From Meiothermus sp. (GTDB lineage: Bacteria > Deinococcota > Deinococci > Deinococcales > Thermaceae), in the NCBI GenBank assembly GCA_033762915.1, contig JANRLD010000025.1, positions 12,488 through 76,487 on the forward strand: a stretch of DNA of 64,000 nucleotides, given 5' to 3'. Shown here in pieces: positions 25,831 to 52,484 of this stretch. Both the position numbers and the translations under genes were made by a program. Below the pieces are notes generated by a model. That model did no database searches. It had not been told where the DNA came from and saw only the letters and a list, made by a program, of their open reading frames with translations. Each line of letters begins with the position of its first letter. Position 1 is the stretch's first letter.

Positions 25831-26514
25831 ATGGAACGATTGCTGGTAGTCGAAGACGACCCCCAACTGGCCCGCCTTATGACCTCGGTCCTCGAGCGGG
25901 AGGGTTACCGTGTTCAGTTGGCCACCAACGGGCTGGACGCCGTAGCGATGGGCCCACAGTCCGACCTGATGCTGCTGGACCTTGGCCTCCCGGGGCTTTC
26001 GGGCCTCGAGGTCATCCGCGACATGCGCTCAGGCGGCTGGAATATGCCCATCCTGGTGGTCAGCGCCCAGGGCTCGGAGGACATGCGGGTGCGGGCCCTG
26101 GAACTGGGGGCCGACGACTACTTGACCAAGCCGATGGGGATGCGCGAGATGGTGGCCCGGGTGCGGGCCCTAATCCGCCGTACCCGCCCGGCCCCCGAGA
26201 TTCAGGTGGGCGACCTCAAGATTCTGCTCAACCGCCGCCAGGTGTACAAGGGCCAGCAACTGCTGGACTTCTCGGCCACCGAGCTCGACCTGCTGATCAC
26301 CCTTGCGGCAAACCCCGGCGAGGTCTGGAGCCGCGAACGGCTCTTGAGCCGGGTCTGGGGCTCGGAGCGGGGAAGCGCGGTGGACGAGCGGGTGGTGGAC
26401 AGCTACGTGGCCCTGTTGCGGCGCAAGCTGGGCGACGACCCCAAGGCCCCCCGTTACGTGGAGACAGTCTTTGGGCAGGGCTACCGAATGGTCATCAGCC
26501 TGGGCGAGCTGTGA
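25831..26514 (+). CDS. OmpR/PhoB-family response regulator (no kinase in window)
   Basis: VVEDD, LLDLGLP, GADDYLTKP and C-terminal wHTH ETVFGQGY. Confidence 0.92.
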   Translation: MERLLVVEDDPQLARLMTSVLEREGYRVQLATNGLDAVAMGPQSDLMLLDLGLPGLSGLEVIRDMRSGGWNMPILVVSAQGSEDMRVRALELGADDYLTKPMGMREMVARVRALIRRTRPAPEIQVGDLKILLNRRQVYKGQQLLDFSATELDLLITLAANPGEVWSRERLLSRVWGSERGSAVDERVVDSYVALLRRKLGDDPKAPRYVETVFGQGYRMVISLGEL

Positions 26515-26779: not shown

Positions 26780-27292
26780 ATGAAGTGGAGACAGCTTTGG
26801 ATCATTGGTCTCAGCCTGGTGCTGGCCCTGGCATTTGCGCAGACCAGGGGGGCAGTGAAGCTCGACCTTCAGGCCTACCGGGTGCTGAGCGTGCAGGAAA
26901 ACGGCAGGTCCGTTGAGAAGCTGGAGGAGGCCCTCGAGGTACGCCCCGGCCAACTCATCGAGTACCGCCTGGCCGCCCAGAACACCAGCCAGACCGCCCT
27001 GCGCCAGGTCAGCCTGGTCATCCCGATTCCCCGCACCACCGCCTACCAGGCCCTGAGTGCGGCTCCCCTGCGGCTTGGCCAGAGCCTGGTCGCGCCTCAG
27101 TTTAGTTTTGACGGTGGAAGCGTCTACGGCTTCCCGCCGCTAAAGCGCAAAGTAACTGTGATGGAAAACGGCAAGGAGGTTCAGCGCGAGGTTGAGGTGA
27201 AGCCCGAAGAGTACACCCATGTTCGCTGGGTTCTGCCGCAGATGGCCACCCAGGAAAACGTCGTCTTGACGCTGCGGGCCACGGTTCGCTAA
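26780..27292 (+). CDS. Small secreted single DUF11-like domain protein (putative chaperone)
   Basis: Signal peptide; VRPGQLIEYRLAAQN...YTHVRW...LTLRATVR*; GAGGAGG RBS. Confidence 0.8.
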   Translation: MKWRQLWIIGLSLVLALAFAQTRGAVKLDLQAYRVLSVQENGRSVEKLEEALEVRPGQLIEYRLAAQNTSQTALRQVSLVIPIPRTTAYQALSAAPLRLGQSLVAPQFSFDGGSVYGFPPLKRKVTVMENGKEVQREVEVKPEEYTHVRWVLPQMATQENVVLTLRATVR

Positions 27293-27343: not shown

Positions 27344-30115
27344 ATGAAAAGAACCCTAAGTCTGTTGGTCGGCGCGGTGGCGCTTCTGGGCGTAGCCTTC
27401 GCCCAGCAAACCCCCGCCGGAACCAACATCTCCAACCAGGCCTCGGCCACCTATATCGACTCGGCCGGTCAGAACCAGAGCACCACTTCCAACCAAGTGT
27501 TGACCGTGGTGCAGCAGGTTTACAGCTTCACCATCACCCCCAACTCGGCCAGCACCAGCGAGCCCACCGGCGCCGCCGGCTTCGCCCAGAGCCGCAGCGC
27601 CCTTCCCGGTGCGCGCGTCTACTTCCCCTACACGGTCAACAATACAGGCAACGGCCCTGATACCATCAACCTGACCAGTGTACTCGGTACCGCCGGCGGC
27701 ACCACCCCCGTTCGCTTCGTGCTCCAGACCCCCACCATCTACCGCGACACCAACTGTAACGGCTCGGTGGACGCCGGTGAGTCGGTGATCTCCTCGGTGG
27801 CCCTCACCCAAAACGTCGGGGCACTGGCCGCAACCTCCTTGGCCTGCGTGATCATCGAGACCACCATCCCCAGCAGCGCCAATAACAACGAGGTCGGCAA
27901 CATCAACCTCTCGGGGATCTCGGCCGGCAACAACTCGGTGACCGACACCAACAACTGGTCGCGGGCCATCGCCACCACCTCCGCCGCGCTGGACATCAAC
28001 AAGAGCGCCAGCCCCAGCAACACGGCTTCGGCGGGCGGCACCATCTCCTACACCATCACCGGCCAGAATCGCGGCGGCAGCGCGGCCTCCGGCCTGACCA
28101 CCATCCCCACCGGCCTGGGCAGCATCCCGGTTGCCAGCAGCACCGGCATCCTGATCTGGGACATCGTGCCCACTGGCCTGACCCTGACCGGCGCCCCCAG
28201 CGGCTCCTCGGGCGCGGGCACCGTCAACATCGTCTACTCGAGCGACGGCACCACCTGGACCTCGACCGCCCCGACCTTCGCCACCTGGGCCGGCGACGGC
28301 ACCCGCCGCGTGGGCATGTGGATCACCGGCTCGGGCGCTTTCTTCCCCCAGGGGGCCTCGTACACCTTTAGCTTCACCACCAACGTGCCCGCAGGCGCGG
28401 CCTCGGGTACCACGTACACCAACACTGCCAACCTGCAGTTCAACAACGGCGCCGACGTCGGTCCGGTCGCCTCGAACAGCACCTCCAACACCGTCGGCAC
28501 CACCTTCGGCGTGGCCCTTGGCCCCAACGGTACCGCCACCGCTGCGGGCAACGGCGCGGTCGGCTCGGCCGACTCCCAGACCATCGCCTCGGCTTTCAGT
28601 GGCCAGACGGTGACCTTCACCCAGACCCTGCAGAACACCGGCAATGCCTCTGACAGCTTCAACCTGTCCCTGGGCACCGGCGCGACCGCCCCCAACCTGG
28701 CCCCGCCCAGCGGCTGGTCCTGCCAGATCACCCAGATTGACGGCACCCCCATCAACACCGCCGTCGGGCCTTTTGCTGCCAACGCCACCTTCAACTTCCA
28801 GGTGCGCTGCGCCATCCCCGCCAGCTACACCACCGCCACCGCGGTTAGCTTGAACGTGATCGCCACTTCGGTCGGCAACTCTGGCACCAGCGACCCCACC
28901 GCCGACACGGTCAGCGCGGTCAGCCTGGGCTACGCAGTCGACCTCGCCACCCGCGGCAACACCTCCAGGCCCGAGACCGCGGCCAACGACAACCCCGCCG
29001 GCCAGACCACCAACCCCGCAACCACCGTCAGCTTCCCGCTGGACGTGCGCAACAACGGCGAGAACACTGACACCTACCAGCTCTCGGCCACCATCCCCTC
29101 TGGCTGGTCGGTGCAGTTCATCAACGATGCCAACAACAACGGCGTAGCCGACTCCGGCGAGGCCGTGGTCAACAACACCGGCCTGATGGCCAAGGACGCT
29201 GTCCGTAGCGTGATCGCGGTGGTCACGGTGCCGGCCGGCACCAGCCCCGGCAGCAACAGCCTGACCTTTACCACCACCAGCGCCACCCTGGGCACGGTGA
29301 GCAACGCCGTCTCTACCACCATCACCGTCAACGAGGTCCGGGCCTTCGTATTCGACCCCGACCGCAGCGGTACCGTGACCAGCCCCGGCACCATCGTCTA
29401 CACCCATAACCTGCGCAACAACGGCAACGCCAGCGCAACCGTGGCGATCCCCGCGCCCACCTTCCTCAACACCTCCCGCGGCTGGACCTACCAGTACTCC
29501 ACCGACGGCGGCACCACCTGGACCAGCACCGTCTCGGGCTTGGTCCTGGCCGCCAACGCCTCGGCCACCCTGCAGGTGCGGGTGATCGTGCCCGCCGGCG
29601 AGGCCATCGGGGTGAGCGAGACCGCCCAGATCACCGCCACCGCCACCTACGCCAGCAGTGCCACCGCAGCCCAGACCGTCAACGACACCACCACCATCGT
29701 GGCCGGCGACCTGACCCTGGCCAAGACCGGCATCAGCTACGTGGGCAGCTCCGCCACCGTGCGCTCCGCCACCGCCGCCACCGCACTGCCCGGCGACCAG
29801 ATCCTCTACACGGTGGTCGCGACCAACAACGGCGTGGGCAATCTGACCACCGTCAAGATCGCCGACCCGCTGCCCAGCTTCACCGACTTCGTCTCGGTTA
29901 GCGCCACTACCACCATCTCGGGCGGTACCGTGGTCTACTCCACCGACGGCAACAACTGGACCACCACTGCCCCGACTACCCTCTCGGCAGGTCAGTCCAT
30001 CTACGTAGCCGTCAACACCGCCGGCACCGCTGGCGGCGCGGGCAGCATCGACGCCAGCGACCTGATGGCTCCTGGCCGCACCATCACCATCACCTTCCGA
30101 GTGCAAGTCCGCTAA
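27344..30115 (+). CDS. Secreted multi-Ig/DUF11 protein (putative major fibre subunit)
   Basis: Signal peptide; Thr/Ser/Asn-rich tandem beta-sandwich repeats (N.GN..D motifs); GGAGG RBS; followed by hairpins. Confidence 0.85.
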   Translation: MKRTLSLLVGAVALLGVAFAQQTPAGTNISNQASATYIDSAGQNQSTTSNQVLTVVQQVYSFTITPNSASTSEPTGAAGFAQSRSALPGARVYFPYTVNNTGNGPDTINLTSVLGTAGGTTPVRFVLQTPTIYRDTNCNGSVDAGESVISSVALTQNVGALAATSLACVIIETTIPSSANNNEVGNINLSGISAGNNSVTDTNNWSRAIATTSAALDINKSASPSNTASAGGTISYTITGQNRGGSAASGLTTIPTGLGSIPVASSTGILIWDIVPTGLTLTGAPSGSSGAGTVNIVYSSDGTTWTSTAPTFATWAGDGTRRVGMWITGSGAFFPQGASYTFSFTTNVPAGAASGTTYTNTANLQFNNGADVGPVASNSTSNTVGTTFGVALGPNGTATAAGNGAVGSADSQTIASAFSGQTVTFTQTLQNTGNASDSFNLSLGTGATAPNLAPPSGWSCQITQIDGTPINTAVGPFAANATFNFQVRCAIPASYTTATAVSLNVIATSVGNSGTSDPTADTVSAVSLGYAVDLATRGNTSRPETAANDNPAGQTTNPATTVSFPLDVRNNGENTDTYQLSATIPSGWSVQFINDANNNGVADSGEAVVNNTGLMAKDAVRSVIAVVTVPAGTSPGSNSLTFTTTSATLGTVSNAVSTTITVNEVRAFVFDPDRSGTVTSPGTIVYTHNLRNNGNASATVAIPAPTFLNTSRGWTYQYSTDGGTTWTSTVSGLVLAANASATLQVRVIVPAGEAIGVSETAQITATATYASSATAAQTVNDTTTIVAGDLTLAKTGISYVGSSATVRSATAATALPGDQILYTVVATNNGVGNLTTVKIADPLPSFTDFVSVSATTTISGGTVVYSTDGNNWTTTAPTTLSAGQSIYVAVNTAGTAGGAGSIDASDLMAPGRTITITFRVQVR

Positions 30116-30124
30116 GCCCCATTT

Positions 30125-30277: not shown

Positions 30278-33022
30278 GTGAGCGTTTTGACACCCGACAA
30301 CCCCAATGCGCCCACTTCCCTCGGGGCCCGCGCACAACATCGGACTTTCCTTTTCCCGCTGGCCCTTTTGCTGAGCTTCCTGGCCTGTTTTTGGCCCTCG
30401 GCCCTAGCCCAGAGCGCCCTGGCCGGCACCATCATCTCCAACCAGGCCCAAGTCTCCTTCGCCGAGTCTACCCAGCCCTACTTCTCCAACGTGGTGGAGA
30501 CCCTGGTTCAGGCGGTCTGCGCGCCGACCATCACCCCCAACGGAACCCAGGGCAGCCCGGCCCAGCGGGCGGTGGTTTCGGCGGGCGGTTTCGCCTACTT
30601 CCCCTACCTGCTGCGCAATGCCGGCAACCAGCGCAGCACTTTCGCGCTGAGCTCGGCCCAGAACGCCGCCACCTGGGCCCCCCGTTGGGTCCGGTTGTAC
30701 CTAGATCAAAACGAAGACTCGAGGCTCGACCCGGGGGAGCCCCAGGTCGCGAGCCTGTCCCTTGATGTGGGGGAGCAGCGCCGGCTGGTGATGGAGGTTG
30801 CCCTACCCGCCAACGCCACCGGCGACCTGCTGGTCACCCCCACTGCCAGCTGCGTGACCGGCGAGCGCGACGACGACAACTTCAGCCAGATCAGCGTGGG
30901 AACCGGGCCCTCGCTCAACCTCACCAAGTCCACCAGCCGGACCACCCTCGACACCAACCAGGAAACCACCTTCGGGCTCCTGGTGGCCAACCTGGGCAGC
31001 ACGCGGACGGGCGGGCCGGTCTCCGTCACCGACTGGCTCAACACCCCCGAACTGGCCGGGCTAAGCATTGTGCCCGGCTCGGCCGAGGCCACCAAGGGAC
31101 GCCTGGAGTACAGCGCCGACGGGACCACCTGGAGTAGCCTCGAAGGCACCCAGGTCCTCGGGGTGCGCCTGGTGCTCGATGGCCTGGAGGCCGGCGAGCA
31201 GGCAGTCTTCAGCTTCCGCATGCGCCTGGGCGAGGGTAGCTCGAACGGCCTCCGGCGTAACCTGGCCACCGCCGAGGGTCCGGGCGGGCCAGCGGTGGCC
31301 GCCGTCGAGCTGACGGTGGCCCCACGCTTCGCCCACCGGTTGGGGCCGCTGGGCCGGCCCGAGGCCAGCGGTGCCCAGGACCGCCAGAGCGGAACCGCCC
31401 GTGTCGGGCAGAGCTACTGCTTCTCACACAGCCTGATTAACCTGGGCAACGCCCCCGACCGCTACACCCTCGAGCTCGGCGTGCTGCCCCCAGGGATAAC
31501 CGCCAGCTTCCGCCAGGGCAGCGGCCCGCTGGCCCAACCGATCCTGCTGGGCCAGGGCGAACGCAGTGACTTCCAACTCTGCCTAGGCGGCCTCGATCAG
31601 CAGACTCCCAGCTTCGAGGTCACCCTCAACGCGGTCTCCCAGACCACCGGGGCGGTCGACCCCACCTACGACATACTGGGTGTCACCTACGACCCGGCCA
31701 GCGTGCGGCTGCTCAAGAGCACCGACCGGGCCTCGGCGATGCCGGGAGAGTCGGTCAACTACACCCTGCAAATCAGCAACCCCTTCCCGGTCGCGATGAC
31801 CAACCTGCGTGTCAGGGACCAGCTCGACGAGAGGCTGGAGTTCGTCGAAGCCTCTTCAGGCGGCAGCTTCGAACCGGCCAGCCGCGAGGTGGTCTGGACG
31901 GTGGGCAGCCTGGGGGTCGGCCAGACCCTCACCCTGAGCCTGCGGGTGCGGGTGGCCTCCACCACGAACGACGGCCAGATCCCCAACCGCTTCAGTCTCC
32001 GGGCCGATCAGTTCGACGACACCGCCACCTCCAACACGGTCAGTCTGCCTATCCTCACCAGCAGCATCCAGCTGCTCAAGAGGGTAACCCCTGCTCAGGC
32101 AGTGGTGGGCGACACCCTCACCTTCACGCTGACCCTACAGAACACCGGCAAGACCGACCTGGTCATCGAGGTGGTTGACACCCCCGGCAAAGGCCTGCGC
32201 TACGTGGAGCAGAGCGCCCAGCCCGCCGCCTCAGCCCAGCGCGGAGAGGGCCTGGTGTGGTCGGGCCTCGAGCTACCCGCCGGGGCCACCCGCAGCCTGA
32301 GCTACAAGATGCGGGTGTTGGCAGGGGCCCCGGAGCTGCTGGAGAACCGCGCGGTGGCCACTGGGGTCAACACCCAGGGGGTGGCGGTGGCGGCGGCCTC
32401 GGCGGCGGCCTCGGTCAAGCTGGACCGGGCGGTGTTCACGCCCATCAACATTCTGAGCGGCAGGGTCTTCCTCGATTCCGACCGCGATGGGCGCTATACG
32501 GCTGGTCTGGACATCCCGCTACCAGGAGCCAGGCTGGTGCTGTCCAACGGGATGCAAACCCTCAGCGACAAGGACGGGCGCTACGCCTTTCGGGAGCTGC
32601 GGGGCGGGGCCTGGGAGATCTTCCTCGACCCGGCCTCAGCCCCCTTCAAGCCGCTCCCGCACCCCGAGCAGTTAGGTGAAGGCTACCGCCACAGGGTCAC
32701 GGTCAACGGCCTGACCAACTCCGACTTCCCCCTCGAGCGCCCCCTGGGCCAGGCGGTGGTGCAGCGCGAGACCACCCTCGAGTTCGGCCCGCTTAAGGTC
32801 TACAAGCGCCTGATCGCCCTGCCGGCCGGGTTGCGGGTGGTCTTGGAGGTCAACAGCAGCGAGCCCATGAACGACCTCACCGTCTCCGACCCGGTGCCCG
32901 GCGGTGGGCTTCGGGAGTTCAAATTTGACAAGCTGGAAGGCCCACAGACCGTAACCTACGACTTGCCCATAACGCCCGGGTTCTACCTAACCGACCCGCA
33001 GGCCAGGTGGCGATACCCATGA
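30278..33022 (+). CDS. Secreted DUF11 + SdrD-B-like protein (putative base/adaptor subunit)
   Basis: N-terminal half paralogous to 27344..30115; DUF11 repeats; LSGRVFLDSDRDG...LPGARL..SDKDGRYAF (SdrD-B-like). Confidence 0.8.
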   Translation: MSVLTPDNPNAPTSLGARAQHRTFLFPLALLLSFLACFWPSALAQSALAGTIISNQAQVSFAESTQPYFSNVVETLVQAVCAPTITPNGTQGSPAQRAVVSAGGFAYFPYLLRNAGNQRSTFALSSAQNAATWAPRWVRLYLDQNEDSRLDPGEPQVASLSLDVGEQRRLVMEVALPANATGDLLVTPTASCVTGERDDDNFSQISVGTGPSLNLTKSTSRTTLDTNQETTFGLLVANLGSTRTGGPVSVTDWLNTPELAGLSIVPGSAEATKGRLEYSADGTTWSSLEGTQVLGVRLVLDGLEAGEQAVFSFRMRLGEGSSNGLRRNLATAEGPGGPAVAAVELTVAPRFAHRLGPLGRPEASGAQDRQSGTARVGQSYCFSHSLINLGNAPDRYTLELGVLPPGITASFRQGSGPLAQPILLGQGERSDFQLCLGGLDQQTPSFEVTLNAVSQTTGAVDPTYDILGVTYDPASVRLLKSTDRASAMPGESVNYTLQISNPFPVAMTNLRVRDQLDERLEFVEASSGGSFEPASREVVWTVGSLGVGQTLTLSLRVRVASTTNDGQIPNRFSLRADQFDDTATSNTVSLPILTSSIQLLKRVTPAQAVVGDTLTFTLTLQNTGKTDLVIEVVDTPGKGLRYVEQSAQPAASAQRGEGLVWSGLELPAGATRSLSYKMRVLAGAPELLENRAVATGVNTQGVAVAAASAAASVKLDRAVFTPINILSGRVFLDSDRDGRYTAGLDIPLPGARLVLSNGMQTLSDKDGRYAFRELRGGAWEIFLDPASAPFKPLPHPEQLGEGYRHRVTVNGLTNSDFPLERPLGQAVVQRETTLEFGPLKVYKRLIALPAGLRVVLEVNSSEPMNDLTVSDPVPGGGLREFKFDKLEGPQTVTYDLPITPGFYLTDPQARWRYP

Positions 33023-36000
33023 AACCAGGAACAGGGAACAGGGAACAGGGAACAGGGAGGAGAAGCTCTCGCGGTCTCTCTCTCCTGGTTCCTCTCCTTT
33101 CTTTCCTCGCCCTCCTGATGTTCGGCAGCGCGCTCGCGCAAGTCCGTACCGAACTCAAGGGGATCGTGCCCGGCAGTGAGCTGCGCTGGGAGATCACCGA
33201 ACTGCGGGCCAGCATCGTGGTCACCAAGCCGACCATTCTGAACCTGCAGATCTACTCCCCGGGCTTCGACCCCAAGGACTACCGCAGCGCCTTACAGGGC
33301 AAAAGCGAACTGGGCGATGAGCGCTACGATAAGGGCAAGGGGCCGATGCGCGCCAGCTTCGCCCTCAGCCGCGACGGGCGGGTGCTCGAGAACCGGGGCT
33401 ACGGGGTGGAGCCGCACCGCTGGGTGCTGTTCTTCCGGGGACGGGTGGAACCGGGGGTGTACACGATTGCCAGCAGCCTCAAGGGGCTGGGCAAGAACGC
33501 CTTCCTCTACCGCATCCAGACCAGCGTCCCCGAATCCGCCGAGCTGCTTGTGGATCCCACCCTTCAGCTCTACGACGTGCGCCGGAGCAGCGCGGTCTCG
33601 ATCGGCACCATCCGTGGGCCGAACTGGGTGGAGCCCTTCACCCTCGAGGTGCTGCCGGGGGTGGGGCCGTTTAGGGTGGGCATCTACGACGAGGACGGCC
33701 CAAGCGAGATGCTGGGGCGGGTGCGGCTGCCCGGCCAGCAGGTGGTGCCGCGCCAGGTTGCCGGCGACCGACAGTGGAGCTACTTCAATGTAGCGACGCC
33801 CGGCATCTACCGCTTCGGCTTCGCGCAGGCCCCCACCTCCAGGCAGTACTCCAACACCATCGGGTTCCAGGTGAATGCCTGCATGCAGGTGCGCGGCGAC
33901 CGCTTCGCGGTGCTTCCACCCAAGCCGGTTACGGCCAGTGTGGTGAACCAAGCGGGGCAGCGGCTCGAGTTCGCCCCCACGATCACCGGCGAGCAGATCC
34001 GCGAGGTCACGCTGCCCCCGCTGCCCGACGGCTACACCCTGCTGCGCATCGAGACCGAGGGCGGCGAGCCGCTGGCGGCCAACAAAGCCCGGCTGGGCTG
34101 CGCGGGCGGAAGCGTGCGCTTCGTGGTCGCGCTGCCCAAGGTGGCCGAGACGCCGGTCTCGCCGGAGCCCAGAGAGCCCGCCCTCACCGACCCCACGCCC
34201 GAGCCCGGCCAGCCCGAGATGGTGGCCCCCCCGGCCCCGGAGCCCATCGCGGTGGCTCCGCTCGAGCCGCTGGCTCCGCAGCCTGAGCCACAACCACAAC
34301 CCCAGCCTGAGCCACAACCACAACCCCAGCCTGAGCCACAACCACAACCCCAGCCTGAGCCACAACCACAACCCCAACCACAACCCCAGCCCCAGCCTGA
34401 ACCCCAGCCCCAGCCCGAGCCGCAACCACAACCCCAACCGCAACCCCAGGTCGAGGTGGTCGCCCCCCCGGTCAAGAAAGGTCGCCTCGAGCTGACGGCC
34501 CGCCTGGTGCTTCCCACGGGTGAGCAGAGCGCCGAGATTGGGGTGCAGGTGGGCGACCAGACCGTCCGGCTCGAGGGCGGGGCGGCCTCGCTCGAGCTGA
34601 CCCCCGGCAGCCTGACCCTGACTCCCCAAGTGCAGGGCGCGACAGTGGTCGGCCCCAGCACCGCCGAGGTGCTGGCAGACCAGACCGCCAGGGCCGAGTT
34701 TAGGGTCTACCCCAGCGTCCAGCTGACCCTGCACGCCGACAAAACCGTGCTGAAGATCGGCGAAGAGGCGGTACTGACCGCAACCGCCACAACCGCCTAC
34801 GCTCGCCTGCTGCCCGCCAACCTCCAACTTGCCCTGCCTGCCTGCCTGGAGCCGCTCGAGACCCCCCGCCTAACCACCCCGATCTCCGCCGCCCGGCAGG
34901 GGGTGCTGCGTGTCCCGGTCCGTGCGGTCTGCCGGGGTGAGTTTCCTGTCCCGGCGACACTAACCCCCTGGGGCCAAGGGGCCAGTGTGAGCCTTAAGGT
35001 GCTGCAGCCACTGAGGTTTAGCCTGACCAAACAGGCCCTGACCCCCGCAGTCGCGGTAGGGGGCCAGGCAGTCTACCGGCTGACGGTCCAGAACATCAGC
35101 GACGAGGCCGGGCCGGTGACCCTGCGCGACCCCCTGGCCGTGGGCCTGCTGGGTGAGCCTCTCGAGCAAAGCCTGGTCCTCGAGCCGGGCCAGGAGCGCA
35201 GCATCGAGCTCAGCGCCCTGGTCGGCCCCGAGGCCCCGGCCCGCATCCAAAACCGGGCCCAGTTGGTGAACGCTGCCGGCGAGGTGCTGGCTGAGTCTGA
35301 GGCCGGGGTCGAGGTGCTGCGACCGGCGGCCGTGCTGGGCCGCACACTGGACAAGCGCGTGGTGGTCCCCGGCGAGACGGTGGAGGTCGGGCTGACCGTG
35401 GGCAACGACGGGCAGGCCAACCTCGAGTACAGCCTGAGCGACACCATACCCGAGTGGCTCGAAGTCTCGAACCCCCCCAGCTTCAGCGGGCAGCTGGCCC
35501 CGGGCCAGCGCGTGACCCACCGCTACACTGCCACGGTGCGCTTCGGCTCGGGGGCCGAGGGACAGTTTGAGGCCCAACTGCGCTCCAACGGCGGCGACCC
35601 CACCGCCACCGACACCCTGCGGCGGGTGCTGGTACCCCTAAGCAAGCGGGCCACGCCCGAGCGGGTGGTGTTGGGGAACGACGCGGCCTTTGAAATCGAG
35701 TTCACCAACCCCACCGACCACCCTTTGAGCCTGGAGTTGATGGAAGCACCCGACCCCGATCTGGGGATGGATATCCCTGGGGAACTTCGGTACGAGCTGG
35801 CCCCCGGAGAGACACAGCGCTTGACCCTTCCGGCTAAGCCCAAGCGGGTGGGGCCCCTGGAGAACCAGGTCACGGCCTTCGTGGGCGGCGCCCCGGCCTC
35901 CTTTCCCACCAAGGCCACCCTCATGGTAATGCCGGTACTGGAGGTGCAGCGCTACTCCCTGGTAACCCTCGAGTTCAGCGCACAGGGGCAGGGCGAGCGA

Positions 36001-38925
36001 CTTCTTCTGACCCACCGGCCGCCCGAGACCGCCGGTTACGAGGCTGGCTCGGCCCGCCTGGACGGCCAGCCCATCCCCGACCCCCGGGCCGACGAGCAGG
36101 GCCGGCTCTACTTCGAGTTCGCGTTCCAGCCCAGGGGAGTCCTTACCTACAGCCTGCGCCACCGCGAGTCACTGCCAGCCCTCCAGCCGCCCACCCTGAC
36201 CCTGCGCGCCGGCGACCGCGAGGTGATGCTGCAGGGACAGGTCGGGTTCGGCGACCTGAACCGGGCCAAGCCGCTGGAAGTCAGCCGCCGCGACGGCTAC
36301 ATCCAGTCCCCCCTCCCCGGCACTATCTTCAGCGTGGATAAGGCCTCGGTCACAGTGGAGGCTCCCTTCGGCCTCGAGGTGCAGCTCCGCCTCAACGGAG
36401 AGCTGGTGGACAGCCGCAACCTGGGCCAGGGCATCTTCGACTCGACCAAGAACCTCCAGCGCCTGGAGTACTTCGGCCTGCCCCTGCGCCGCGGCCGCAA
36501 CCTGATCGAGGTCCAGACGGGCGCGGGATCCGACCGCGTGGAGGTCTTCCTGCCCGACCGACCGGTGCGCCTTGAGGCCCGCCCGGTGAGGGTACAGGCC
36601 GACGGGCGCACCCCGCTGGAGCTGGAATTGCGGGCGGTCGACGACAGCGGCCTGCCCTCGGGCTTCGGGCCGCTGACCCTTCAGAGCTCCCTCGAGCCCC
36701 TGGCTACCGACGCCTTCCCAGGCGAGTCGGGCTATCAGGTGCTGCTGCGCGACGGGCGGGCCACCCTCCTGCTCAGGCCCACCGCCACCCCCACCACCCT
36801 GCGCCTGCGCATGAGCTTCAACGACCTCAGCGCTACCCAGGAGTTCTTCGTGGGTGGCCGCCAGAGCAGCATCGGCCAGATTCAGGGCAGCGTGGGGCTG
36901 CAGTTGAGCGACGGCTGGCAGGGCTTCGGCTCCCTGCGCGGCTACCTCGAGACCCCCCTGGCCGGCGGAACCCTGCGGGCCGCCACTGACACCTCGGTGC
37001 GCTTCGAGAGCGGCCAGGCGGTGGTGGAAAACGGCCTGTCAGGCCAGACAACCCCCACCGGGCGTTTCCCGCTGACCGGCGCGGGCAATGAGGCCACCCA
37101 GCCCTTGACCTCGGCCGACCCCCTGGCCGTGCGCTACGACCAGGAGGCGTTCGGCATCGGCTATTACTCCGGGGCGCTGGCCCTGCCGGGGGTCAGCGAA
37201 CTCCCCCAGGTCACTGCATTGCGCGCAGAGAGCCGTGGCGAGCTCCAGTTGCTCGGCTTCGCTGGGGCCCTGCCGGTGACCAGTATCCGTCAGGAGATCG
37301 TGCCCGACGGCACCCGCCACTACCGCCTGGGCCAGCCCGCCCTGCCCGAGAGCGAGACCGTGATCGTGCGCACAGGGGCCTCCGAGCGGCAGCTCGAGCG
37401 CCTGCGCGACTACGTCCTGGACGCGCCCACCGGCATCCTCACGCTCTCCAGCCCGCTGTGGCCCAGCGGCCCGGACTTCCAGAATGTCCGGCTGATCATC
37501 ACCTACGCGCCGGAGAGCGCCAGCCGGGCCCCGGGCTACGGCATCGGGGTGCGCTACCGGGCCGGCGGGTTTAGCCTGGGGGCAGGCCTGGCACAGCTGC
37601 CCCTGGACAATCAGAGCCGCGACCTGCGCTACGGCCTCGAGGCCGCCTACCAGAGCCAGGACCTGAGCATCCGCCTTACCTACAGCCATGTCGCGCCAGG
37701 CACGCCGGGCAAGATGGGCTTAGATCTTGGCGGCAACTCCGACACCCTCGAGGGCAGCGCTAACCTGACCCTACAGAACCAGGTCCAAGGACAGGCCCGG
37801 GTGGCGGTCAGGCTCAGCCCCGACGATAAGCTCTCCCTCGAGCACCAGGCCTCGGACATTAACCAGAGCGGCCTGATCTACACCCGCCGGCTGAGCCCAG
37901 CGTTTAGCCTCGGCGGTGGCCTGGGGTACATCTGGGAGAGCGGCAACCTGGCCGCCCTGGCCCGCCTGGCCGCAACCGGGACCCCGCTCAACACCGAGCT
38001 GACCCACAGCCAGCCCTTGAGCCTCCAGGCTCCTGCCCAGACCCGCCTACGCAGCAACTATGCCCTCGACACCAACTTGAGCCTCGAGGCCGAGGCGGTG
38101 ACCACCTGGGGCATAGGAGTCAGCGGCGTGGTGGGGCTCAAGCAGAAGTTCGACGCCGCCAACCTCTCGCTTTCTTACCAGCTGCCTGGGGCTTCGGGCG
38201 AGGGCAACCGAGCCCGGTTCGGCCTCGAGACGCCCTTCAGCCTGAGCGACAGGCTGAGCCTTAATCTCAACGCCGGCTACGAGCAAAGCCTCAGCAGCGG
38301 CGATGCCCAGTCTGCCGCCGGGGCTGCTCTGCGCTACAAAGCCGACGACTTCAGCGCAACCCTCGGGGCCGAGGCCGCGATGGCCAGCGGGCGGCCCAAG
38401 GTGGTGCTGCGGGCGGGCGCGACTGGCCAGATCGACGACCAGCAGACCCTCTCGCTCGATACGACCTACCAGATCGTCCCCACTGCCGAGGGTCGGTTCA
38501 CCCTGTCGTACGCACTGCGCGGGCGGGACGTGAGCCTGCTTTCCTACCACCGCCTGCTGAGCGGCGGTGAGCCGGTGCTCGAGGGGGCGGTGGCCGCCAG
38601 CCTCCACCCCGACCCTCGCTTCCAGCTGCGCCCCACCGCGGCCTACCGCTTCAAGCCGCTGGACCAGGTGGGCAACACCTACCAGCTTGGCCTGGGGGCC
38701 AACTACTACCTCACCGACTGGCTGGGCCTGGGCGCGGGAGCCCACTACCAGTTCCAGCCCGGCCTCGGCCAAAGCGCCACAGCCTGGGGTCTCGAGGGCA
38801 GCCTTCGGGTGGCGGATGGGCTGTGGTTCAACGCCGGCTACACCTTCGGCGGCTTCGAGGGCCTGACCGGCGAGACCCGCGGCGGCTTCTACATCCGCCT
38901 AGACTTCTTCGGCGCGACCCGCTAG
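33019..38925 (+). CDS. Giant exported protein: Pro-rich linker, DUF11/Ig domains, C-terminal predicted outer-membrane beta-barrel
   Basis: ATGA overlap at 33019; signal peptide; PQ/PE tract; last ~500 aa are alternating G/aromatic strands ending GGFYIRLDFF. Confidence 0.8.
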   Translation: MKPGTGNREQGTGRRSSRGLSLLVPLLSFLALLMFGSALAQVRTELKGIVPGSELRWEITELRASIVVTKPTILNLQIYSPGFDPKDYRSALQGKSELGDERYDKGKGPMRASFALSRDGRVLENRGYGVEPHRWVLFFRGRVEPGVYTIASSLKGLGKNAFLYRIQTSVPESAELLVDPTLQLYDVRRSSAVSIGTIRGPNWVEPFTLEVLPGVGPFRVGIYDEDGPSEMLGRVRLPGQQVVPRQVAGDRQWSYFNVATPGIYRFGFAQAPTSRQYSNTIGFQVNACMQVRGDRFAVLPPKPVTASVVNQAGQRLEFAPTITGEQIREVTLPPLPDGYTLLRIETEGGEPLAANKARLGCAGGSVRFVVALPKVAETPVSPEPREPALTDPTPEPGQPEMVAPPAPEPIAVAPLEPLAPQPEPQPQPQPEPQPQPQPEPQPQPQPEPQPQPQPQPQPQPEPQPQPEPQPQPQPQPQVEVVAPPVKKGRLELTARLVLPTGEQSAEIGVQVGDQTVRLEGGAASLELTPGSLTLTPQVQGATVVGPSTAEVLADQTARAEFRVYPSVQLTLHADKTVLKIGEEAVLTATATTAYARLLPANLQLALPACLEPLETPRLTTPISAARQGVLRVPVRAVCRGEFPVPATLTPWGQGASVSLKVLQPLRFSLTKQALTPAVAVGGQAVYRLTVQNISDEAGPVTLRDPLAVGLLGEPLEQSLVLEPGQERSIELSALVGPEAPARIQNRAQLVNAAGEVLAESEAGVEVLRPAAVLGRTLDKRVVVPGETVEVGLTVGNDGQANLEYSLSDTIPEWLEVSNPPSFSGQLAPGQRVTHRYTATVRFGSGAEGQFEAQLRSNGGDPTATDTLRRVLVPLSKRATPERVVLGNDAAFEIEFTNPTDHPLSLELMEAPDPDLGMDIPGELRYELAPGETQRLTLPAKPKRVGPLENQVTAFVGGAPASFPTKATLMVMPVLEVQRYSLVTLEFSAQGQGERLLLTHRPPETAGYEAGSARLDGQPIPDPRADEQGRLYFEFAFQPRGVLTYSLRHRESLPALQPPTLTLRAGDREVMLQGQVGFGDLNRAKPLEVSRRDGYIQSPLPGTIFSVDKASVTVEAPFGLEVQLRLNGELVDSRNLGQGIFDSTKNLQRLEYFGLPLRRGRNLIEVQTGAGSDRVEVFLPDRPVRLEARPVRVQADGRTPLELELRAVDDSGLPSGFGPLTLQSSLEPLATDAFPGESGYQVLLRDGRATLLLRPTATPTTLRLRMSFNDLSATQEFFVGGRQSSIGQIQGSVGLQLSDGWQGFGSLRGYLETPLAGGTLRAATDTSVRFESGQAVVENGLSGQTTPTGRFPLTGAGNEATQPLTSADPLAVRYDQEAFGIGYYSGALALPGVSELPQVTALRAESRGELQLLGFAGALPVTSIRQEIVPDGTRHYRLGQPALPESETVIVRTGASERQLERLRDYVLDAPTGILTLSSPLWPSGPDFQNVRLIITYAPESASRAPGYGIGVRYRAGGFSLGAGLAQLPLDNQSRDLRYGLEAAYQSQDLSIRLTYSHVAPGTPGKMGLDLGGNSDTLEGSANLTLQNQVQGQARVAVRLSPDDKLSLEHQASDINQSGLIYTRRLSPAFSLGGGLGYIWESGNLAALARLAATGTPLNTELTHSQPLSLQAPAQTRLRSNYALDTNLSLEAEAVTTWGIGVSGVVGLKQKFDAANLSLSYQLPGASGEGNRARFGLETPFSLSDRLSLNLNAGYEQSLSSGDAQSAAGAALRYKADDFSATLGAEAAMASGRPKVVLRAGATGQIDDQQTLSLDTTYQIVPTAEGRFTLSYALRGRDVSLLSYHRLLSGGEPVLEGAVAASLHPDPRFQLRPTAAYRFKPLDQVGNTYQLGLGANYYLTDWLGLGAGAHYQFQPGLGQSATAWGLEGSLRVADGLWFNAGYTFGGFEGLTGETRGGFYIRLDFFGATR
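33028..33055 (+). repeat. Heptamer tandem repeat (GGAACAG)x4 inside the 5' end of the beta-barrel gene
   Basis: Read directly, 9 nt after the start of the ATG at 33019. Confidence 0.9.
34277..34449 (+). repeat. Coding tandem repeat encoding (PQ/PE)n
   Basis: CAGCCTGAGCCACAACCACAACCC units repeated. Confidence 0.9.
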
Positions 38926-38970: not shown

Positions 38971-41841
38971 ATGTACACACCCCTCACAAGGCAGGACTCA
39001 GGCCGGGCCCGCGCTCCCCTGGGCCTTCTCGTCATGGCGCTGCCCGCCCCCCTGACCAGAGTCTTCGCCCTCGCGTTGCTCCTCTGCAGCTTCGCTCAGG
39101 CCCAGCTCAGCTTCACCAACAGCACCACCGCCCAGACCCTAGCCAATGCCCTGGCCGGGCCTGGCGTCACAGTAGTGGCCAACTCCGCCACCCTCACCCG
39201 CGCCACCACCAACCAGAACAACACGGGCACCTTCAGCGGGGGCACCACCGGAGGCGCCGGCCCGGTGGTCGGGATCGGCTCAGGGGTGCTCCTCAACACC
39301 GGCAGCTTCGCCACCTCAGTGGCGGGGCCCAACAACCGCAAAGGCTCTTCGGCGGGCGGCAGCCAGCTCACCGACGCTGACCTGACCAGCTTGGCCGGGG
39401 CCACGGCCAACTACGACACCGTGTTGCTGACCTTCAGCGTAGTACCCAGCGGGCGCAGCCTCAACTTCCAGTACGTCTTCGGCAGCGAAGAGTACCCCGA
39501 GTATGTCTGCACCTCGTTCAACGACGCGATGGGGATCTTCGTGCGGGGCCCGGGCATCTCCGGGCCCTACGCCAACGGCGCGGTCAATGTGGCCACCCTG
39601 CCCAGCGGGGACCGGATTAGCATCAACAACATCAACGGCGGGCAGATCGGCTACCAGGGCGGGGCCACCGGGACCGGCTGTGTCCTGGGCAACAACGCCT
39701 ACTACGTCGACAACGGCGATCCCAACAACGCCACCCTGCCCAACTCGGCCCTGTTCACCAATACCCAGCTCGACGGCTTCACCCGGCCCCTGCGCAGCCG
39801 GGTCAGCGTGACCCCCGGCCAGACCTACGTCGTGAAGATCGCCATTGCCGACACCGGCGACGCGCAGTACGACTCCGCGCTGTTCATCGGGCTGATCTCG
39901 AGCCAGTCCGACTGGGGCGATGCCCCCTCCACCTACGGCACCAGCACCGCCACCAATGGCCCCCTGCACGACATCGACAGCCGGATCTTCATCGGCCCGA
40001 CCCAGCCCGACGTGGAGAACGACGGCCAACCCGGGGCGGGGGCCGACGGTGACAACCTCAACGGGACCAACGACGAGAACACCCTCACCACCTTCCCAAC
40101 CCTTACCTCGAGCACCCCCACCTACACCCTTAGCGCAATACCGTTGACCAACACCACTGGCCTACCCGCGACCCTGGCAGGATGGATCGACTTCAACCGC
40201 AACGGCCTGTTCGACGCCTCGGAGCGGGCCACCGTATCGGTGGCCAGCGGCGCCACCAGCGCCACTCTGACCTGGAGCGGGCTGAGCGGGCTTTCGATCG
40301 GGACCACCTACCTGCGCCTGCGCCTCTCCTCGGCGCTCGACTTCGTGGCCAACCCCCTCCCGACCGGCGGCTACGACGACGGCGAGGTGGAGGACTATGC
40401 ACTGAGTATCGTGTTCGGGGCGGTGGTCTCGGGCACCGTCTACAGCGACCTACAGCCCAACGGAACCCGCGACAGCGGCGAGAGCTGGAGTGGGGGCCCG
40501 ACCGTCTTCGTCAACCTGATCCAGGCCGGGACGGTGGTGCAGTCGGCCCAGGTGGCCAGCGGCGGCGGGGCCTACAGCTTCAGCGCGGTGCTACCCGGCA
40601 GCTATAGCCTGGTGCTGGGCGGCTCCATCGGCGCCACCACGCCCGCCTCGCCCGCTGGCTGGATGGCCATCAACCCCAGCCCTGCCCTCCTCAGCGTTAC
40701 GGTCACCGCAAGCAACATGCCCAACCAGAACTTCGGCCTGTTTAACGGCTATCGCCTCGCGGGCCTGGTTTTCCGAGACGACGGGCGGGGCGGCGGGACC
40801 GCCAACAACGCCCTGCAAGACGGCGGCGAGCCGGGCTTGGGGGGCGTCACCTTGACCGCCACCGCAGGCCCCAGCACCCGCTCGGCCGCGACCGACGCCA
40901 CCGGGGCCTACGACCTCTACATCCCCGCCAGCTTCTCCAGCGTAACCCTGGGCCACGCTCAGACCCCGGCCACCGGCCACAACAACGCCGGATCGGCCGT
41001 CACGCTGGCCTCGAGCTTCTCCGACCCCGCCGCGAGGCAGCGCAGCCTGGGCACCCTGGCCAACGGCTCGAGCTACTCCTACAACTTCGGGGTGGTATGG
41101 GCCTCGGAGCTCCGCCCCGACCAGAGCGGCCAGGCCACCAGCCCCGGCATCGCCACCTACCGCCACACCTTCCGCCCCGGCACCCTTGGCAGTCTCTCGC
41201 TCGCCGCCACCGGCGCACTGACCTACCGCATCCGCCGTGCCGCCGGCTGCACCGCCCTGGCCCCCTCCGACACCCTGCAGCCGCTGCCCCTCTCTGTGGT
41301 CGTCGACGCCGCCTGGCCCCGCGACCCCAATGGCCGTCTCAGCGCCTGCGAACTCGAGCTGCTGGTCCTGGTGCCCGCCGGACGGCCCAGCGGCGCGGTG
41401 GACATCGCCCAACTTACCAGCAGCCTGACCTGGGCCGGCAACGCGAGCGTGACGGAACAGCGCAACGTCATCGACACCACCACCGTCGTGGCCCAGGGCG
41501 CTCTCCGCCTTGAAAAGGCCGTCCGCAACGTCACCCAGAACGTCCCCGCCGCCGGCGCCTATACCACCAACGTTGCCGGGCGCCCCGGCGACACCCTCGA
41601 GTACTGCATCGCCTTTCGCAACCCCGGCGCCGCCGCCGTCAGCAGCGCCGTCCTCACCGACCCCATCCCCTTCTTCACCAACTACACCGCTTCCTCCCTC
41701 CGCCTCGGCGCCACCGCCCTCTCCGACGCCGCCGACGCCGACGCCGGCGAGCTGGTGAGCGGCCTCTACGTCCTGGTTCGCCTCGGCAACCTTACGGCAG
41801 GCCAGACCGGACAGGTCTGCTACCGCGTGACAGTGCGCTGA
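38971..41841 (+). CDS. Adhesin-like protein: choice-of-anchor-L-like + GEVED + SdrD-B + shared C-terminal module
   Basis: YVFGSEEYPEY..FND, IADTGD..YDSALF, DWGDAP..Y, WIDFNRNG and GEVEDY motifs; start may be ATG 39034. Confidence 0.8.
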   Translation: MYTPLTRQDSGRARAPLGLLVMALPAPLTRVFALALLLCSFAQAQLSFTNSTTAQTLANALAGPGVTVVANSATLTRATTNQNNTGTFSGGTTGGAGPVVGIGSGVLLNTGSFATSVAGPNNRKGSSAGGSQLTDADLTSLAGATANYDTVLLTFSVVPSGRSLNFQYVFGSEEYPEYVCTSFNDAMGIFVRGPGISGPYANGAVNVATLPSGDRISINNINGGQIGYQGGATGTGCVLGNNAYYVDNGDPNNATLPNSALFTNTQLDGFTRPLRSRVSVTPGQTYVVKIAIADTGDAQYDSALFIGLISSQSDWGDAPSTYGTSTATNGPLHDIDSRIFIGPTQPDVENDGQPGAGADGDNLNGTNDENTLTTFPTLTSSTPTYTLSAIPLTNTTGLPATLAGWIDFNRNGLFDASERATVSVASGATSATLTWSGLSGLSIGTTYLRLRLSSALDFVANPLPTGGYDDGEVEDYALSIVFGAVVSGTVYSDLQPNGTRDSGESWSGGPTVFVNLIQAGTVVQSAQVASGGGAYSFSAVLPGSYSLVLGGSIGATTPASPAGWMAINPSPALLSVTVTASNMPNQNFGLFNGYRLAGLVFRDDGRGGGTANNALQDGGEPGLGGVTLTATAGPSTRSAATDATGAYDLYIPASFSSVTLGHAQTPATGHNNAGSAVTLASSFSDPAARQRSLGTLANGSSYSYNFGVVWASELRPDQSGQATSPGIATYRHTFRPGTLGSLSLAATGALTYRIRRAAGCTALAPSDTLQPLPLSVVVDAAWPRDPNGRLSACELELLVLVPAGRPSGAVDIAQLTSSLTWAGNASVTEQRNVIDTTTVVAQGALRLEKAVRNVTQNVPAAGAYTTNVAGRPGDTLEYCIAFRNPGAAAVSSAVLTDPIPFFTNYTASSLRLGATALSDAADADAGELVSGLYVLVRLGNLTAGQTGQVCYRVTVR

Positions 41842-45000: not shown

Positions 45001-46025
45001 AGGACGGCGGCGAACCCGGCATCGGCGGGGTGACCGTCTCGGCGGTGGGGGCCACCACCCGCACCGCCAGCACCGACGCCAGCGGCGGTTTTAGCCTGCT
45101 GATCCCCAGCGGCTTTGGCAATTTCACCCTCTCCCAGCCCCAGGGTCCTGCCACCGGCTCTAACGTCGGCGGCACCGCGGTTCAGCTGGCCGCCGGCTAC
45201 AACAGCGCGGTGGCCCGTCAGCGAGCCGTAACCGCCCTACCCAACGGCTCGAGCAACTCGGGCTACAACTTCGGGGTGGTATGGGCCTCGGAGCTCCGCC
45301 CCGACCAGAGCGGCCAGGCCACCAGCCCCGGTGTCGCCGCCTATCGCCACACCTTCCGCCCCGGCACGCTCGGCAGTGCAAGCCTGACCGTCAGCGGCGC
45401 CTTCACTTACCAGATCCGCCGCGCCGCTGGATGCACCGCCCTGGCACCCTCCGACGCCCTGCGGCCCGTGCCCCTCTCCCTGGTCGTCGACTCCACCTGG
45501 CCCCGCGACCCCGACGGCCGCCTCAGCGCCTGCGAGCTCGAGCTGCTGGTCCTGGTCCCCGCCGGCCGGCCCGGCGGCTCCGTCGACATCGCCCAGCTTT
45601 CGGCGTCCCTAACCTGGGCCGGCAACGCAAGCGTGACCGACCAGCGCACCGCGACCGACACCACCACCGTCGCCGCGACGGGCGCTCTGCGCTTGAGCAA
45701 GGTGGTGCGCAACGTCACCCAGAACATTCCCGCTGCTGGCGCATATGCCACCAACGTCGCTGGCCGCCCCGGCGACACCCTCGAGTACTGCATCGCCTTC
45801 CGCAACTCCGGCGCCGCTGCCGTCAGCAGCGCCGTCCTCACTGACCCCATCCCCTTCTTCACCAACTACGCCCCGGGCACCCTCCGCCTCGACTCCGCAC
45901 CGCTCACCGATACCGCCGACGCCGACACCGGCGAGCTGGTGGGCACCCTCTACGTTCTGGTTCGCCTCGGCACCCTGACCGCAGGCCAGACCGGACAGGT
46001 CTGCTACCGCGTCACCATCCGCTGA
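42063..46025 (+). CDS. Adhesin-like protein: jelly-roll head + SdrD-B + DUF11 repeats + shared C-terminal module
   Basis: Signal peptide; PGGGGNDLAIDNLQF; SGRVYLDQNAN; several K..YT...N..D.LP repeats; GGAGG RBS. Confidence 0.8.
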   Translation: MMPKTAGGWPGLAVGLVLIALTGLSGPASAQATNFCANAGGTRSANLFALDGTFGTAPAGTQAPTLTSSTNPTPTVTPLRYAMSTVPGVTGGLDAQGRPIGTTTYALNNRSTVNFPGNYSPEDGEYEITNSSYSRQDGAWHRFIGGRNTGNERDLFMFINAAVAAGVFYEQTLTVTPNTNFEFSISIINLIANNSSIVPNVNLEIDRLGVDDNNNGTVDESGEAQTIVLTGNIPNSNTPIWRDYGGVINSGASNRITVRFRNNAPGGGGNDLAIDNLQFTSCTGLSTGNISGRVYLDQNANNTSDAGEPGYGPNVAVSLIGKDQNLNDFIVATAQTAADGSYSFVNVPAGTYTVAVPQNEPQLNQANPRNPSTTAVINSVTYVTRPSTVVGLGTSLTNQNFGFGPAPISLQKTANANSSTDAIGSVITAAAVGNTFQYTLRVTNNTGTNLSSTSLRLMDALPAGLTYVTGSLQMALVTTGSPTFSSVNDGGSYPFTEPSGRLLGRNVGTSTSSFNNGNLNSGETLIVRFRVTVASGPPPQISNQGRITYTISSVSRNVLSDDPNVAGFADPAVVVVGANLTVSKVADLASVSPGSTLRYTITLVNNGALPTTALTLQDPLPAGLTYVPNSAEAAIGSTPASFTPLNASSYPFATARTMGNNVSSGGFNNNTLAVGETLTVRFRVTVADTATGLGQATSLSNQASTVFNYTGGSPTTVPSDDPAFGGPSDPTITPVQYPDLTIQKTAAATFWQGNNSSYTLTVSNTAGSPASLGTVSVTDVLDASLNYVSAGGSGWSCAYTAATRTVACTRSDALSGGSAYPGITLTVVPTAAGPVPNTAGVANGADNNSANNTSTLSLSVQATYTLSGNVFADANANGLREGGEAGLAGVTVALGGAAARTALTDSSGNYAFTFLIPGSYTLTQTDLPGYISITPNLLGVSLGNADLGNQNFADFLGYRLSGTVFRDDGRGGGTANNALQDGGEPGIGGVTVSAVGATTRTASTDASGGFSLLIPSGFGNFTLSQPQGPATGSNVGGTAVQLAAGYNSAVARQRAVTALPNGSSNSGYNFGVVWASELRPDQSGQATSPGVAAYRHTFRPGTLGSASLTVSGAFTYQIRRAAGCTALAPSDALRPVPLSLVVDSTWPRDPDGRLSACELELLVLVPAGRPGGSVDIAQLSASLTWAGNASVTDQRTATDTTTVAATGALRLSKVVRNVTQNIPAAGAYATNVAGRPGDTLEYCIAFRNSGAAAVSSAVLTDPIPFFTNYAPGTLRLDSAPLTDTADADTGELVGTLYVLVRLGTLTAGQTGQVCYRVTIR

Positions 46026-52400: not shown

Positions 52401-52484
52401 GGCACCCTCTACGTTCTGGTTCGCCTCGGCACCCTGACCGCAGGCCAGACCGGACAGGTCTGCTACCGCGTCACCATCCGCTAA
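46491..52484 (+). CDS. Giant adhesin-like protein (1997 aa): many DUF11 repeats + SdrD-B + shared C-terminal module
   Basis: Signal peptide; repeated DL..TKT..YTI...NNGP..TDTLP...NTA..DP..NNS repeats; C-terminus paralogous to the two previous genes. Confidence 0.85.

Follow-up and report, generated by a model that had tools for sequence, protein, structure and literature searches.

Protein B, encoded on the forward strand of a 64,000-nucleotide stretch of Meiothermus sp. DNA (GenBank assembly GCA_033762915.1, contig JANRLD010000025.1, positions 12,488 to 76,487; this whole stretch is the window referred to below), carries a domain that is circularly split between its two ends. The domain belongs to the DUF11 family, since renamed CLIPPER, for which a crystal structure shows an Asp-catalysed Lys-Asn isopeptide bond (PMC12617251). 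In B, the C-terminal domain stops short of its Asn-bearing strand, and the missing strands are found as a hairpin at the mature N-terminus. We consider it fairly probable that a surface fibre is built with B as its repeating subunit, through complementation of the split CLIPPER (DUF11) domain by a donor hairpin. A preliminary description of the window had read B as a head-to-tail subunit with a hairpin donor; this reading is supported in silico and is extended here to a probable covalent lock at the joint and to a system of seven genes, A to G. The argument rests on four features of B:

27344..30115, forward strand: protein B, predicted fibre subunit of 923 amino acids (aa), with a signal peptide, a donor hairpin, five complete immunoglobulin-like (Ig-like) domains and a C-terminal acceptor domain.
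27404..27520, forward strand: donor hairpin of B (residues 21-59), corresponding to the last two strands of a CLIPPER domain, with the invariant Asn31 (27434-27436).
27980..28498, forward strand: complete internal CLIPPER domain of B (residues 213-385), the reference for the split, with the triad Lys220/Asp273/Asn360.
29705..30112, forward strand: acceptor domain of B (residues 788-923), a CLIPPER domain stopping after the strand before the Asn strand, with Lys794 (29723-29725) and Asp841 (29864-29866).

The two ends of protein B are complementary halves of one domain

Three pieces of B were compared by profile-profile alignment (hhalign), using an alignment of 26 homologues. Against the internal domain (residues 210-392), the C-terminal piece (residues 785-923) covers internal positions 18-139 (E = 4.3e-15) and the N-terminal piece (residues 21-62) covers internal positions 142-179 (E = 1.3e-4). 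The two matches abut (positions 139 and 142), and the terminal pieces show no match to each other (E = 0.19 in the profile comparison). Because the two pieces match different, adjoining stretches of the internal domain, the ends of B are complementary halves of one domain, and the circular split of the DUF11 domain is real. This is what the preliminary description had claimed in assigning the first part only of the internal repeat to the C-terminal domain and the remainder to the mature N-terminus, and its boundaries for the donor (~27404-27520) and the acceptor (~29705-30112) are correct.

An external reference is provided by protein G of the same cluster, which contains canonical CLIPPER repeats. 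The B acceptor aligns with positions 9-91 of the 129 positions of these repeats (E = 9.5e-14, hhalign). The acceptor is accordingly not a continuous, whole CLIPPER beta-sandwich: it ends at position 91 of 129, and the missing strands lie at residues 21-59. The Pfam DUF11 profile (PF01345) likewise matches B at residues 808-891 with 32.9 bits (cut-off 24.6) over profile positions 7-81/82 of 114 only, and TIGR01451 matches B with 50.8 bits. The N-terminal piece is among the best-conserved parts of the family, with 22 invariant positions in residues 20-59 across the 26 homologues. When a hidden Markov model (HMM) of the donor was run over the whole 5.4-Mb genome, only B (84 bits) and protein C (14 bits, independent E-value 0.054) were recovered. 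A search of representative sequences with the acceptor profile gave 31,639 matches at E <= 0.001; ranked by summed score, all 150 matches listed are giant multi-repeat DUF11 proteins, which is uninformative on the spread of terminal truncated domains.

The signal peptide of B ends in AFA and is followed by QQ, so that the mature protein starts at Q21 (base 27404). The C-terminus reads FRVQVR, with neither a membrane anchor nor an LPXTG sorting signal. At present, the proteins of the cluster carry no annotation beyond 'DUF11 domain-containing' or 'beta strand repeat-containing' protein. On the minus strand, opposite B (27356-30106), there is an open frame of 916 aa, most likely a shadow open reading frame (ORF) of this high-GC, repetitive coding region.

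The split separates the residues of an isopeptide triad

In the CLIPPER structure (PDB 9IFR), the bond-forming triad consists of Lys715, Asp748 and Asn806 within a domain spanning residues 708-828 (PMC12617251). A five-row profile of the canonical G repeats aligns with this chain over nearly the whole length (E = 0.0084, profile positions 6-122 on chain positions 8-120), and places the Lys, Asp and Asn of the repeats on chain positions 10, 43 and 101, that is, on Lys715, Asp748 and Asn806. The structure was reached only with this profile; a single G repeat sequence gave no hits in the PDB. Canonical triads in G are K683/D717/N776 and K812/D846/N905, the last Asn being followed by ~25 further residues, and the spacing of the canonical repeats matches that of the 9IFR triad. 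The internal domain of B aligns with the same repeats (E = 1.5e-11, hhalign), with K220, D273 and N360 on K8, D42 and N101; all three residues are invariant in the 26 homologues.

The same columns can be followed across the split. Lys794 and Asp841 are invariant in 28/28 aligned acceptors (20 of B type, one of them from a Deinococcus metagenome-assembled genome, and eight from tip-type proteins, the class to which E, F and G below belong), and Asn31 of the donor is invariant in all 26 homologues. The Lys, Asp and Asn columns are all occupied only across the split, with Lys794 and Asp841 on the acceptor and Asn31 on the donor. Since the split parts the Lys and Asp of the acceptor from the Asn of the donor, the joint between donor and acceptor is probably covalent, as judged from these residues. 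This separation is the point that the preliminary description missed.

The donor hairpin is predicted to complete the acceptor domain

The complex of the B acceptor (residues 785-923) and donor (residues 21-62) was modelled with a separate alignment for each part. The interface score (ipSAE, interaction prediction score from aligned errors) reached a median of 0.90, and the best of three controls gave 0.00; because the halves of a split domain should pass such a prediction in any case and a similar domain has been solved (9IFR), this value may express fold completion and likeness and is not proof of binding in trans. The mark used for this score is passed by 116 of 157 solved complexes and by 2 of 215 mismatched pairs. 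At least 93% of contacts are common to the runs, with a predicted local distance difference test (pLDDT) of at least 86 for the partner. In the model, donor residues 33-38 run along acceptor residues 834-841, the strand ending in Asp841, and donor residues 47-59 run along the first acceptor strand (788-796); the predicted interface uses donor residues 27-59.

A two-strand hairpin as donor, proposed in the preliminary description, is thus given by the complex model and also by an AlphaFold2 (AF2) model of the B monomer, in which the hairpin strands lie at 28-31, 34-38, 44-48 and 52-56. The full-length monomer model has a pLDDT of 84.9 and a predicted template modelling score (pTM) of 0.41. In it, the hairpin joins domain 1, and domain 5 joins the acceptor, both without a linker. 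If donor and acceptor came from different molecules, the last strand of the donor would lead straight into the first domain of the donor molecule, and the joint would resemble an internal boundary of a tandem stalk. Foldseek searches with the full-length model returned generic tandem-Ig proteins only (ciliary central-pair proteins, titin, complement), and a PDB sequence search with the whole-protein profile of B gave only chance-level matches (antibody light chains, E >= 0.046).

Unpaired halves in neighbouring genes favour complementation in trans

The cluster extends from a response regulator gene at 25831 to the end of G at 52484. Besides B, it contains:

25831..26514, forward strand: OmpR-family response regulator (Pfam Response_reg, 1.2e-27; Trans_reg_C, 1.4e-23), directly upstream of the operon.
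26780..27292, forward strand: protein A, a small secreted, single truncated CLIPPER-like acceptor; candidate donor-capping chaperone or cap.
30278..33022, forward strand: protein C, candidate terminator or anchor subunit of 914 aa, with a donor hairpin (~30410-30511), DUF11 domains and the tail RWRYP.
33007..38925, forward strand: protein D, candidate outer-membrane platform or anchor of 1972 aa, with a signal peptide, Ig-like domains and a C-terminal beta-barrel (~37537-38922).
38971..41841, forward strand: protein E, candidate tip adhesin of 956 aa, with a choice-of-anchor L, GEVED and SdrD_B head and an orphan acceptor (41464-41838).
42063..46025, forward strand: protein F, candidate tip adhesin of 1320 aa, with an SdrD_B/DUF11 stalk and an orphan acceptor (45648-46022).
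46491..52484, forward strand: protein G, candidate tip adhesin of 1997 aa, with at least seven canonical CLIPPER repeats and an orphan acceptor (52107-52481).

A, E, F and G all close with this truncated domain, which breaks off immediately behind the strand at which the B acceptor stops, and no donor was found in these four proteins, including by the whole-genome donor HMM. C starts with a donor of its own type, and its end is unlike the other acceptors. Since the orphan acceptors (A, E, F and G) and the orphan donor (C) can be completed only by another protein, pairing in trans is favoured. The preliminary description had held complementation in trans to be likelier than in cis, and this view gains weight from the orphan acceptors, from the C donor and from the fact that the pattern is kept through the phylum.

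The arrangement is conserved across the phylum

Relatives of B number 194 at E <= 0.001, and the names among the matches listed are Meiothermus, Calidithermus and Thermus. Neighbouring genes were counted over 35 public loci:

A directly upstream of B: 29 of 35 loci; five of the other six start at a contig end.
C downstream of B: 30 of 35 loci; the other five end at a contig end.
D after C: 28 of 30 loci; the other two end inside C.
Tip-type gene after D: 14 loci.

The truncated ends are kept as well. All 29 A homologues end in ...V(R/K) before the stop, as do 32/34 B homologues in ...V(Q/K) (the exceptions being one unrelated tail and one fragment) and 5/5 tip homologues in ...V/I-R. The donor motif follows the signal peptide in 33/35 B ORFs, the two without it being cut by contig ends; for C, a regular expression found it in 26/31 ORFs, and the five misses are four cases of a variant motif and one C-terminal fragment. 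B-like matches (E <= 1e-30) are present in 166/301 genomes of the phylum and, by family with the source genome left out, in 44/61, 93/112, 4/14, 20/103 and 4/10. In four loci from three other families of the phylum the A-B-C-D order recurs, together with the donors and the truncated ends; the gene order is therefore kept across Thermaceae and other families of the phylum.

Companion proteins and genomic surroundings

A is a protein of ~170 aa (170 aa in the recorded form, starting at 26780), and its family can be aligned with the B acceptor over the full length (hhalign E = 1.6e-8). At the column of B Asp841 it has Ile, and after the LDL strand no Lys is conserved. Judged from these positions, A could bind a donor but not ligate one. 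An A homologue from another family of the phylum (locus L044, 14053-14601) has an Asp one position before the Asp841 column (IDLPIP), and given this homologue, A may not have lost the catalytic Asp in every case.

The stop of C overlaps the start of D. C homologues share a nearly invariant tail, ...LTDP(Q/E)(V/A)RWRYP (32980-33022 here, overlapping the D start), which looks like a dedicated sorting or docking signal. Two Meiothermus loci (L006, 12610-13863; L011, 12649-13848) encode a C of only ~400 aa in which the donor hairpin and the RWRYP tail are kept; as these short proteins retain both ends, the middle domains of C appear to be dispensable.

D matches Pfam Porin_4 at residues 1491-1642 (2.2e-7), and the AF2 model of its last 540 aa (pLDDT 84.7) contains 31 strands, predicting a barrel of about 30 strands. 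D homologues end (38890-38925 here) with a conserved last barrel strand and a short tail, (F/L)Y(L/V)RLD(F/I)(F/L)GG(S/G)R, which is the usual C-terminal barrel signal in a modified form, extended by residues beyond the aromatic.

The heads of E, F and G are of adhesin type (choice-of-anchor L, GEVED, SdrD_B and many CLIPPER repeats); in G, Pfam DUF11 is matched at 3.6e-80 in seven stretches. The three genes have different heads and a common 3' module of ~1.15 kb (40690-41842, 44874-46026 and 51330-52485) with 66-94% nucleotide identity. This points to duplication, or to heads being exchanged as cassettes on one shared attachment module, and fits a role of the predicted proteins as interchangeable tips with a common attachment end. 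Most relatives have one tip-type gene after D.

A homologue of the response regulator lies directly upstream of A in five related loci (L004, L015, L017, L018 and L027), and the regulator possibly controls the operon. A promoter and terminator scan of 25500-33200, itself weak, found a single promoter-like site, which precedes the response regulator, and within A to C no terminators on the plus strand. The cluster is flanked by two glutamate dehydrogenase genes, tandem glutamate/leucine dehydrogenase paralogues just upstream (23013-24287 and 24456-25733), and by a dihydrouridine synthase gene. Over 28001-54000, across the adhesin genes, a strong and sustained negative GC skew (to -0.28) and a positive AT skew probably reflect the codon composition of Thr/Ala/Asn/Gly-rich proteins, not a replication signal. 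The assembly measures 5.38 Mb in 119 contigs, compared with 2.4-3.9 Mb in 17 same-genus genomes among the matches listed, and has an estimated contamination of 0.51%.

Proposed mechanism and alternatives

We infer an assembly by polymerisation in trans, with a covalent bond at the joint and with roles for A, C and D. Once the signal peptide is removed, residues 21-59 of B would form a two-strand hairpin corresponding to the end that another subunit's C-terminal domain lacks, and insertion of this hairpin would rebuild a normal stalk domain. The rebuilt domain would lead straight into the first domain of the donor molecule, making the polymer a continuous string of Ig-like domains. It would carry the full isopeptide triad (Lys794 and Asp841 from the acceptor, Asn31 from the donor), and for this reason the joint would probably seal itself by a self-catalysed Lys-Asn bond, without a sortase. 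In such a fibre, E, F and G (acceptor only) would be alternative distal tips, B (donor and acceptor) the shaft, and C (donor and distinct RWRYP end) a terminator or anchor. D, with its barrel of ~30 strands, would be the outer-membrane platform, and A, an acceptor without the Lys or the Asp, a reversible periplasmic holder of donor hairpins or a fibre cap. A bolder version of this scheme, which we put forward tentatively and as the less likely outcome, is that the cluster represents a new pilus class in two-membrane bacteria: a self-ligating fibre with a naturally split CLIPPER domain as a built-in Tag/Catcher and with an inverted chaperone-usher logic. A would then hold the Asn-bearing hairpin reversibly and hand it over to a reactive acceptor at D, in the order tips, B and then C, which would anchor the covalent chain by RWRYP.

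Several points weigh against a polymerising fibre or against parts of this mechanism, beside the restricted meaning of the ipSAE score given above. The whole analysis of A to G is computational. The match of the B donor to the canonical G repeats is weak (E = 0.056), yet in register, with Asn31 on the canonical Asn; and no Pfam family is matched at E <= 10 by the isolated B donor (41 aa) or, likewise, by the isolated C donor (38 aa). Among the lowest-error pairs listed for the complex model, Lys794 has donor residues 49 and 52 as its neighbours and Asn31 does not appear, although residues 29-40 belong to the interface. The C-terminal domain of C bears a weak likeness to DUF11 (E = 0.0016) and contains a Lys and an Asp, so that C may not be a pure terminator, and its description as a clear, acceptor-less terminator is softened. 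The solved folds nearest to the D barrel are LptD and the FimD usher at template modelling (TM) scores of 0.27-0.33 (FimD TMq 0.33), and Pfam finds no Usher (PF00577) match in D at E <= 0.01; D was rejected as an usher homologue, the likeness (TM 0.33) being that of generic large barrels. Finally, the hairpin in the AF2 monomer (pLDDT 87-94) is compatible with docking in cis.

Three other explanations were weighed. The one that survives best, although we find it unlikely, is a defined modular adhesin without a polymer, in which a tip (E, F or G), a single B and a single C would be linked in series through the same split domains to form one long stalk on D, with no B-B joint in the cell. The two donor types and three acceptor types would suit such a stalk, as would the contact-bearing invariant residues common to B and tip acceptors: the B donor could serve the tip acceptors and the C donor the B acceptor. 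It is countered by the high confidence with which the donor and acceptor of B itself are predicted to fit, a subunit with donor and acceptor of matching type being a hallmark of the shaft subunits of chaperone-usher pili. In addition, a tip gene is not seen in the available DNA after D in some related loci (e.g., L010 and L020).

We regard it as improbable that the B hairpin completes its own C-terminal domain, which would give a covalently closed ring of six or seven domains and a monomeric, hyper-stable surface protein. The AF2 monomer gives high confidence to the hairpin and to the acceptor alike (pLDDT 93-96 for the latter), as expected if they were docked, and self-complemented 'closed' forms have been proposed for other donor-strand subunits (TafA, PMC11821415). 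Such closure is unavailable to the orphan acceptors in A, E, F and G and to the orphan donor of C, which nevertheless have the same invariant residues. Moreover, the linker-free joints at both ends of B would require a ring with sharp bends at every joint, and a pTM of 0.41 makes the domain arrangement in the monomer model unreliable.

Hardly credible is the absence of any complementation, with the C-terminal domain a stable short variant, the hairpin a part of the first domain and their likeness a relic of gene origin from a tandem-repeat adhesin: some CLIPPER-type domains are compact and without isopeptide residues (PMC12617251) and Pfam does not recognise the donor, but the hairpin has 22 invariant positions, the Lys and the Asp never vary among acceptors lacking an Asn of their own, the domain is cut off at precisely one and the same strand in five operon proteins and across the phylum, and the complex prediction of donor and acceptor passes.

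Comparison with known systems

As a proposed fibre subunit that would polymerise through a split domain, B has its closest known mechanism in what has been termed 'donor-strand exchange and lock' for BsaA, a TasA-family protein of Clostridium perfringens. There, an N-terminal donor strand with Asn35 enters the following monomer, where Glu56 locks it to Lys74, and oligomers are lost in alanine mutants (PMC11580942). In both systems the Asn lies on the N-terminal donor and the Lys and catalytic acid on the acceptor, as the alignments show here for B, and the covalent, sortase-free subunit joints reported for BsaA (PMC11580942) are those that we propose for B. BsaA differs in its TasA fold, its one disordered donor strand, its Glu as acid, its single-domain subunits and its monoderm host with SipW, whereas the B system would use a hairpin donor, an Asp, subunits of 900 to 2000 aa, two membranes and a dedicated barrel protein. 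Pfam gives no TasA/camelysin family match in A to G, and sortase (PF04203) has no match in the source genome (95.5% complete), with control matches obtained in three genomes.

The B acceptor belongs to the same domain family as the CLIPPER adhesins and has the same Lys/Asp/Asn columns (PF01345, 9IFR; PMC12617251), and a stalk-building role is likely to be common to the split domain and the CLIPPER tandem-repeat fibrillar adhesins. In the adhesins described in that survey, the domain is continuous and the bond intramolecular, while here the Asn-bearing last two strands are carried by the opposite end of the protein or by a different one; neither 'split' nor 'donor' is a word used in that survey (PMC12617251).

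By analogy, the closest operon logic is that of the chaperone-usher pili (Fim, Pap), which have, as proposed here, an acceptor-only tip, a shaft with donor and acceptor, a donor-only terminator and an operon-encoded outer-membrane barrel. In these pili, an N-terminal donor completes a C-terminally incomplete Ig fold; in B this is predicted in silico, with two strands. The B system would differ in its two-strand donor, its probably covalent joint and its accessory protein A, which mimics the acceptor and not the donor. The barrel of D has ~30 predicted strands, compared with 24 in the usher (PMC13721041). Neither Usher nor PapD family matches were found by Pfam in A to G, A being a truncated CLIPPER-like domain and not PapD-like.

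Other systems share single elements. Type V pili (FimA, Mfa1) of Bacteroidota are strand-exchange polymers in a diderm without a classical usher; they are made from lipoprotein precursors, are protease-activated and have a C-terminal donor. B, unlike them, has an ordinary signal peptide ending in AFA, no lipobox Cys and an N-terminal donor. The archaeal thread Saci_0406 combines head-to-tail donor-strand complementation with an inter-subunit isopeptide bond, has no known sortase and has a neighbouring donor-only cap candidate; it is unrelated in sequence, bonds Asn57 to the N-terminal amine of subunit n+2 and comes from a one-membrane archaeon (PMC9715654). In engineered Tag/Catcher pairs, a strand with one reactive residue is separated from the rest of its domain and reacts spontaneously on docking (PMC5487036, PMC8878318); these are man-made splits of CnaB-type domains, and B would be a natural split of a CnaA-like domain for polymerisation. 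What sets the B system apart from known ones is the combination of a CnaA-like CLIPPER fold, a two-strand donor, very large multi-domain subunits, a diderm host with a giant barrel and an unreactive acceptor paralogue. Our literature searches found no published description of a split-CLIPPER fibre system, and CLIPPER is unmentioned in 300,000 characters of a 2026 review (PMC13721041).

Implications

If this interpretation is true, B and its companions would extend the few known routes of pilus assembly by a fibre that is covalently linked without a sortase, found in a deep-branching phylum with poorly known surface appendages and of a type not yet described for it. The trick of splitting an isopeptide domain, later invented by protein engineers, would be in use in nature, and the thermophiles that carry it would be a source of thermostable donor/acceptor pairs. 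The system would also give a function to a gene cluster that more than half of the genomes sampled from the phylum carry.

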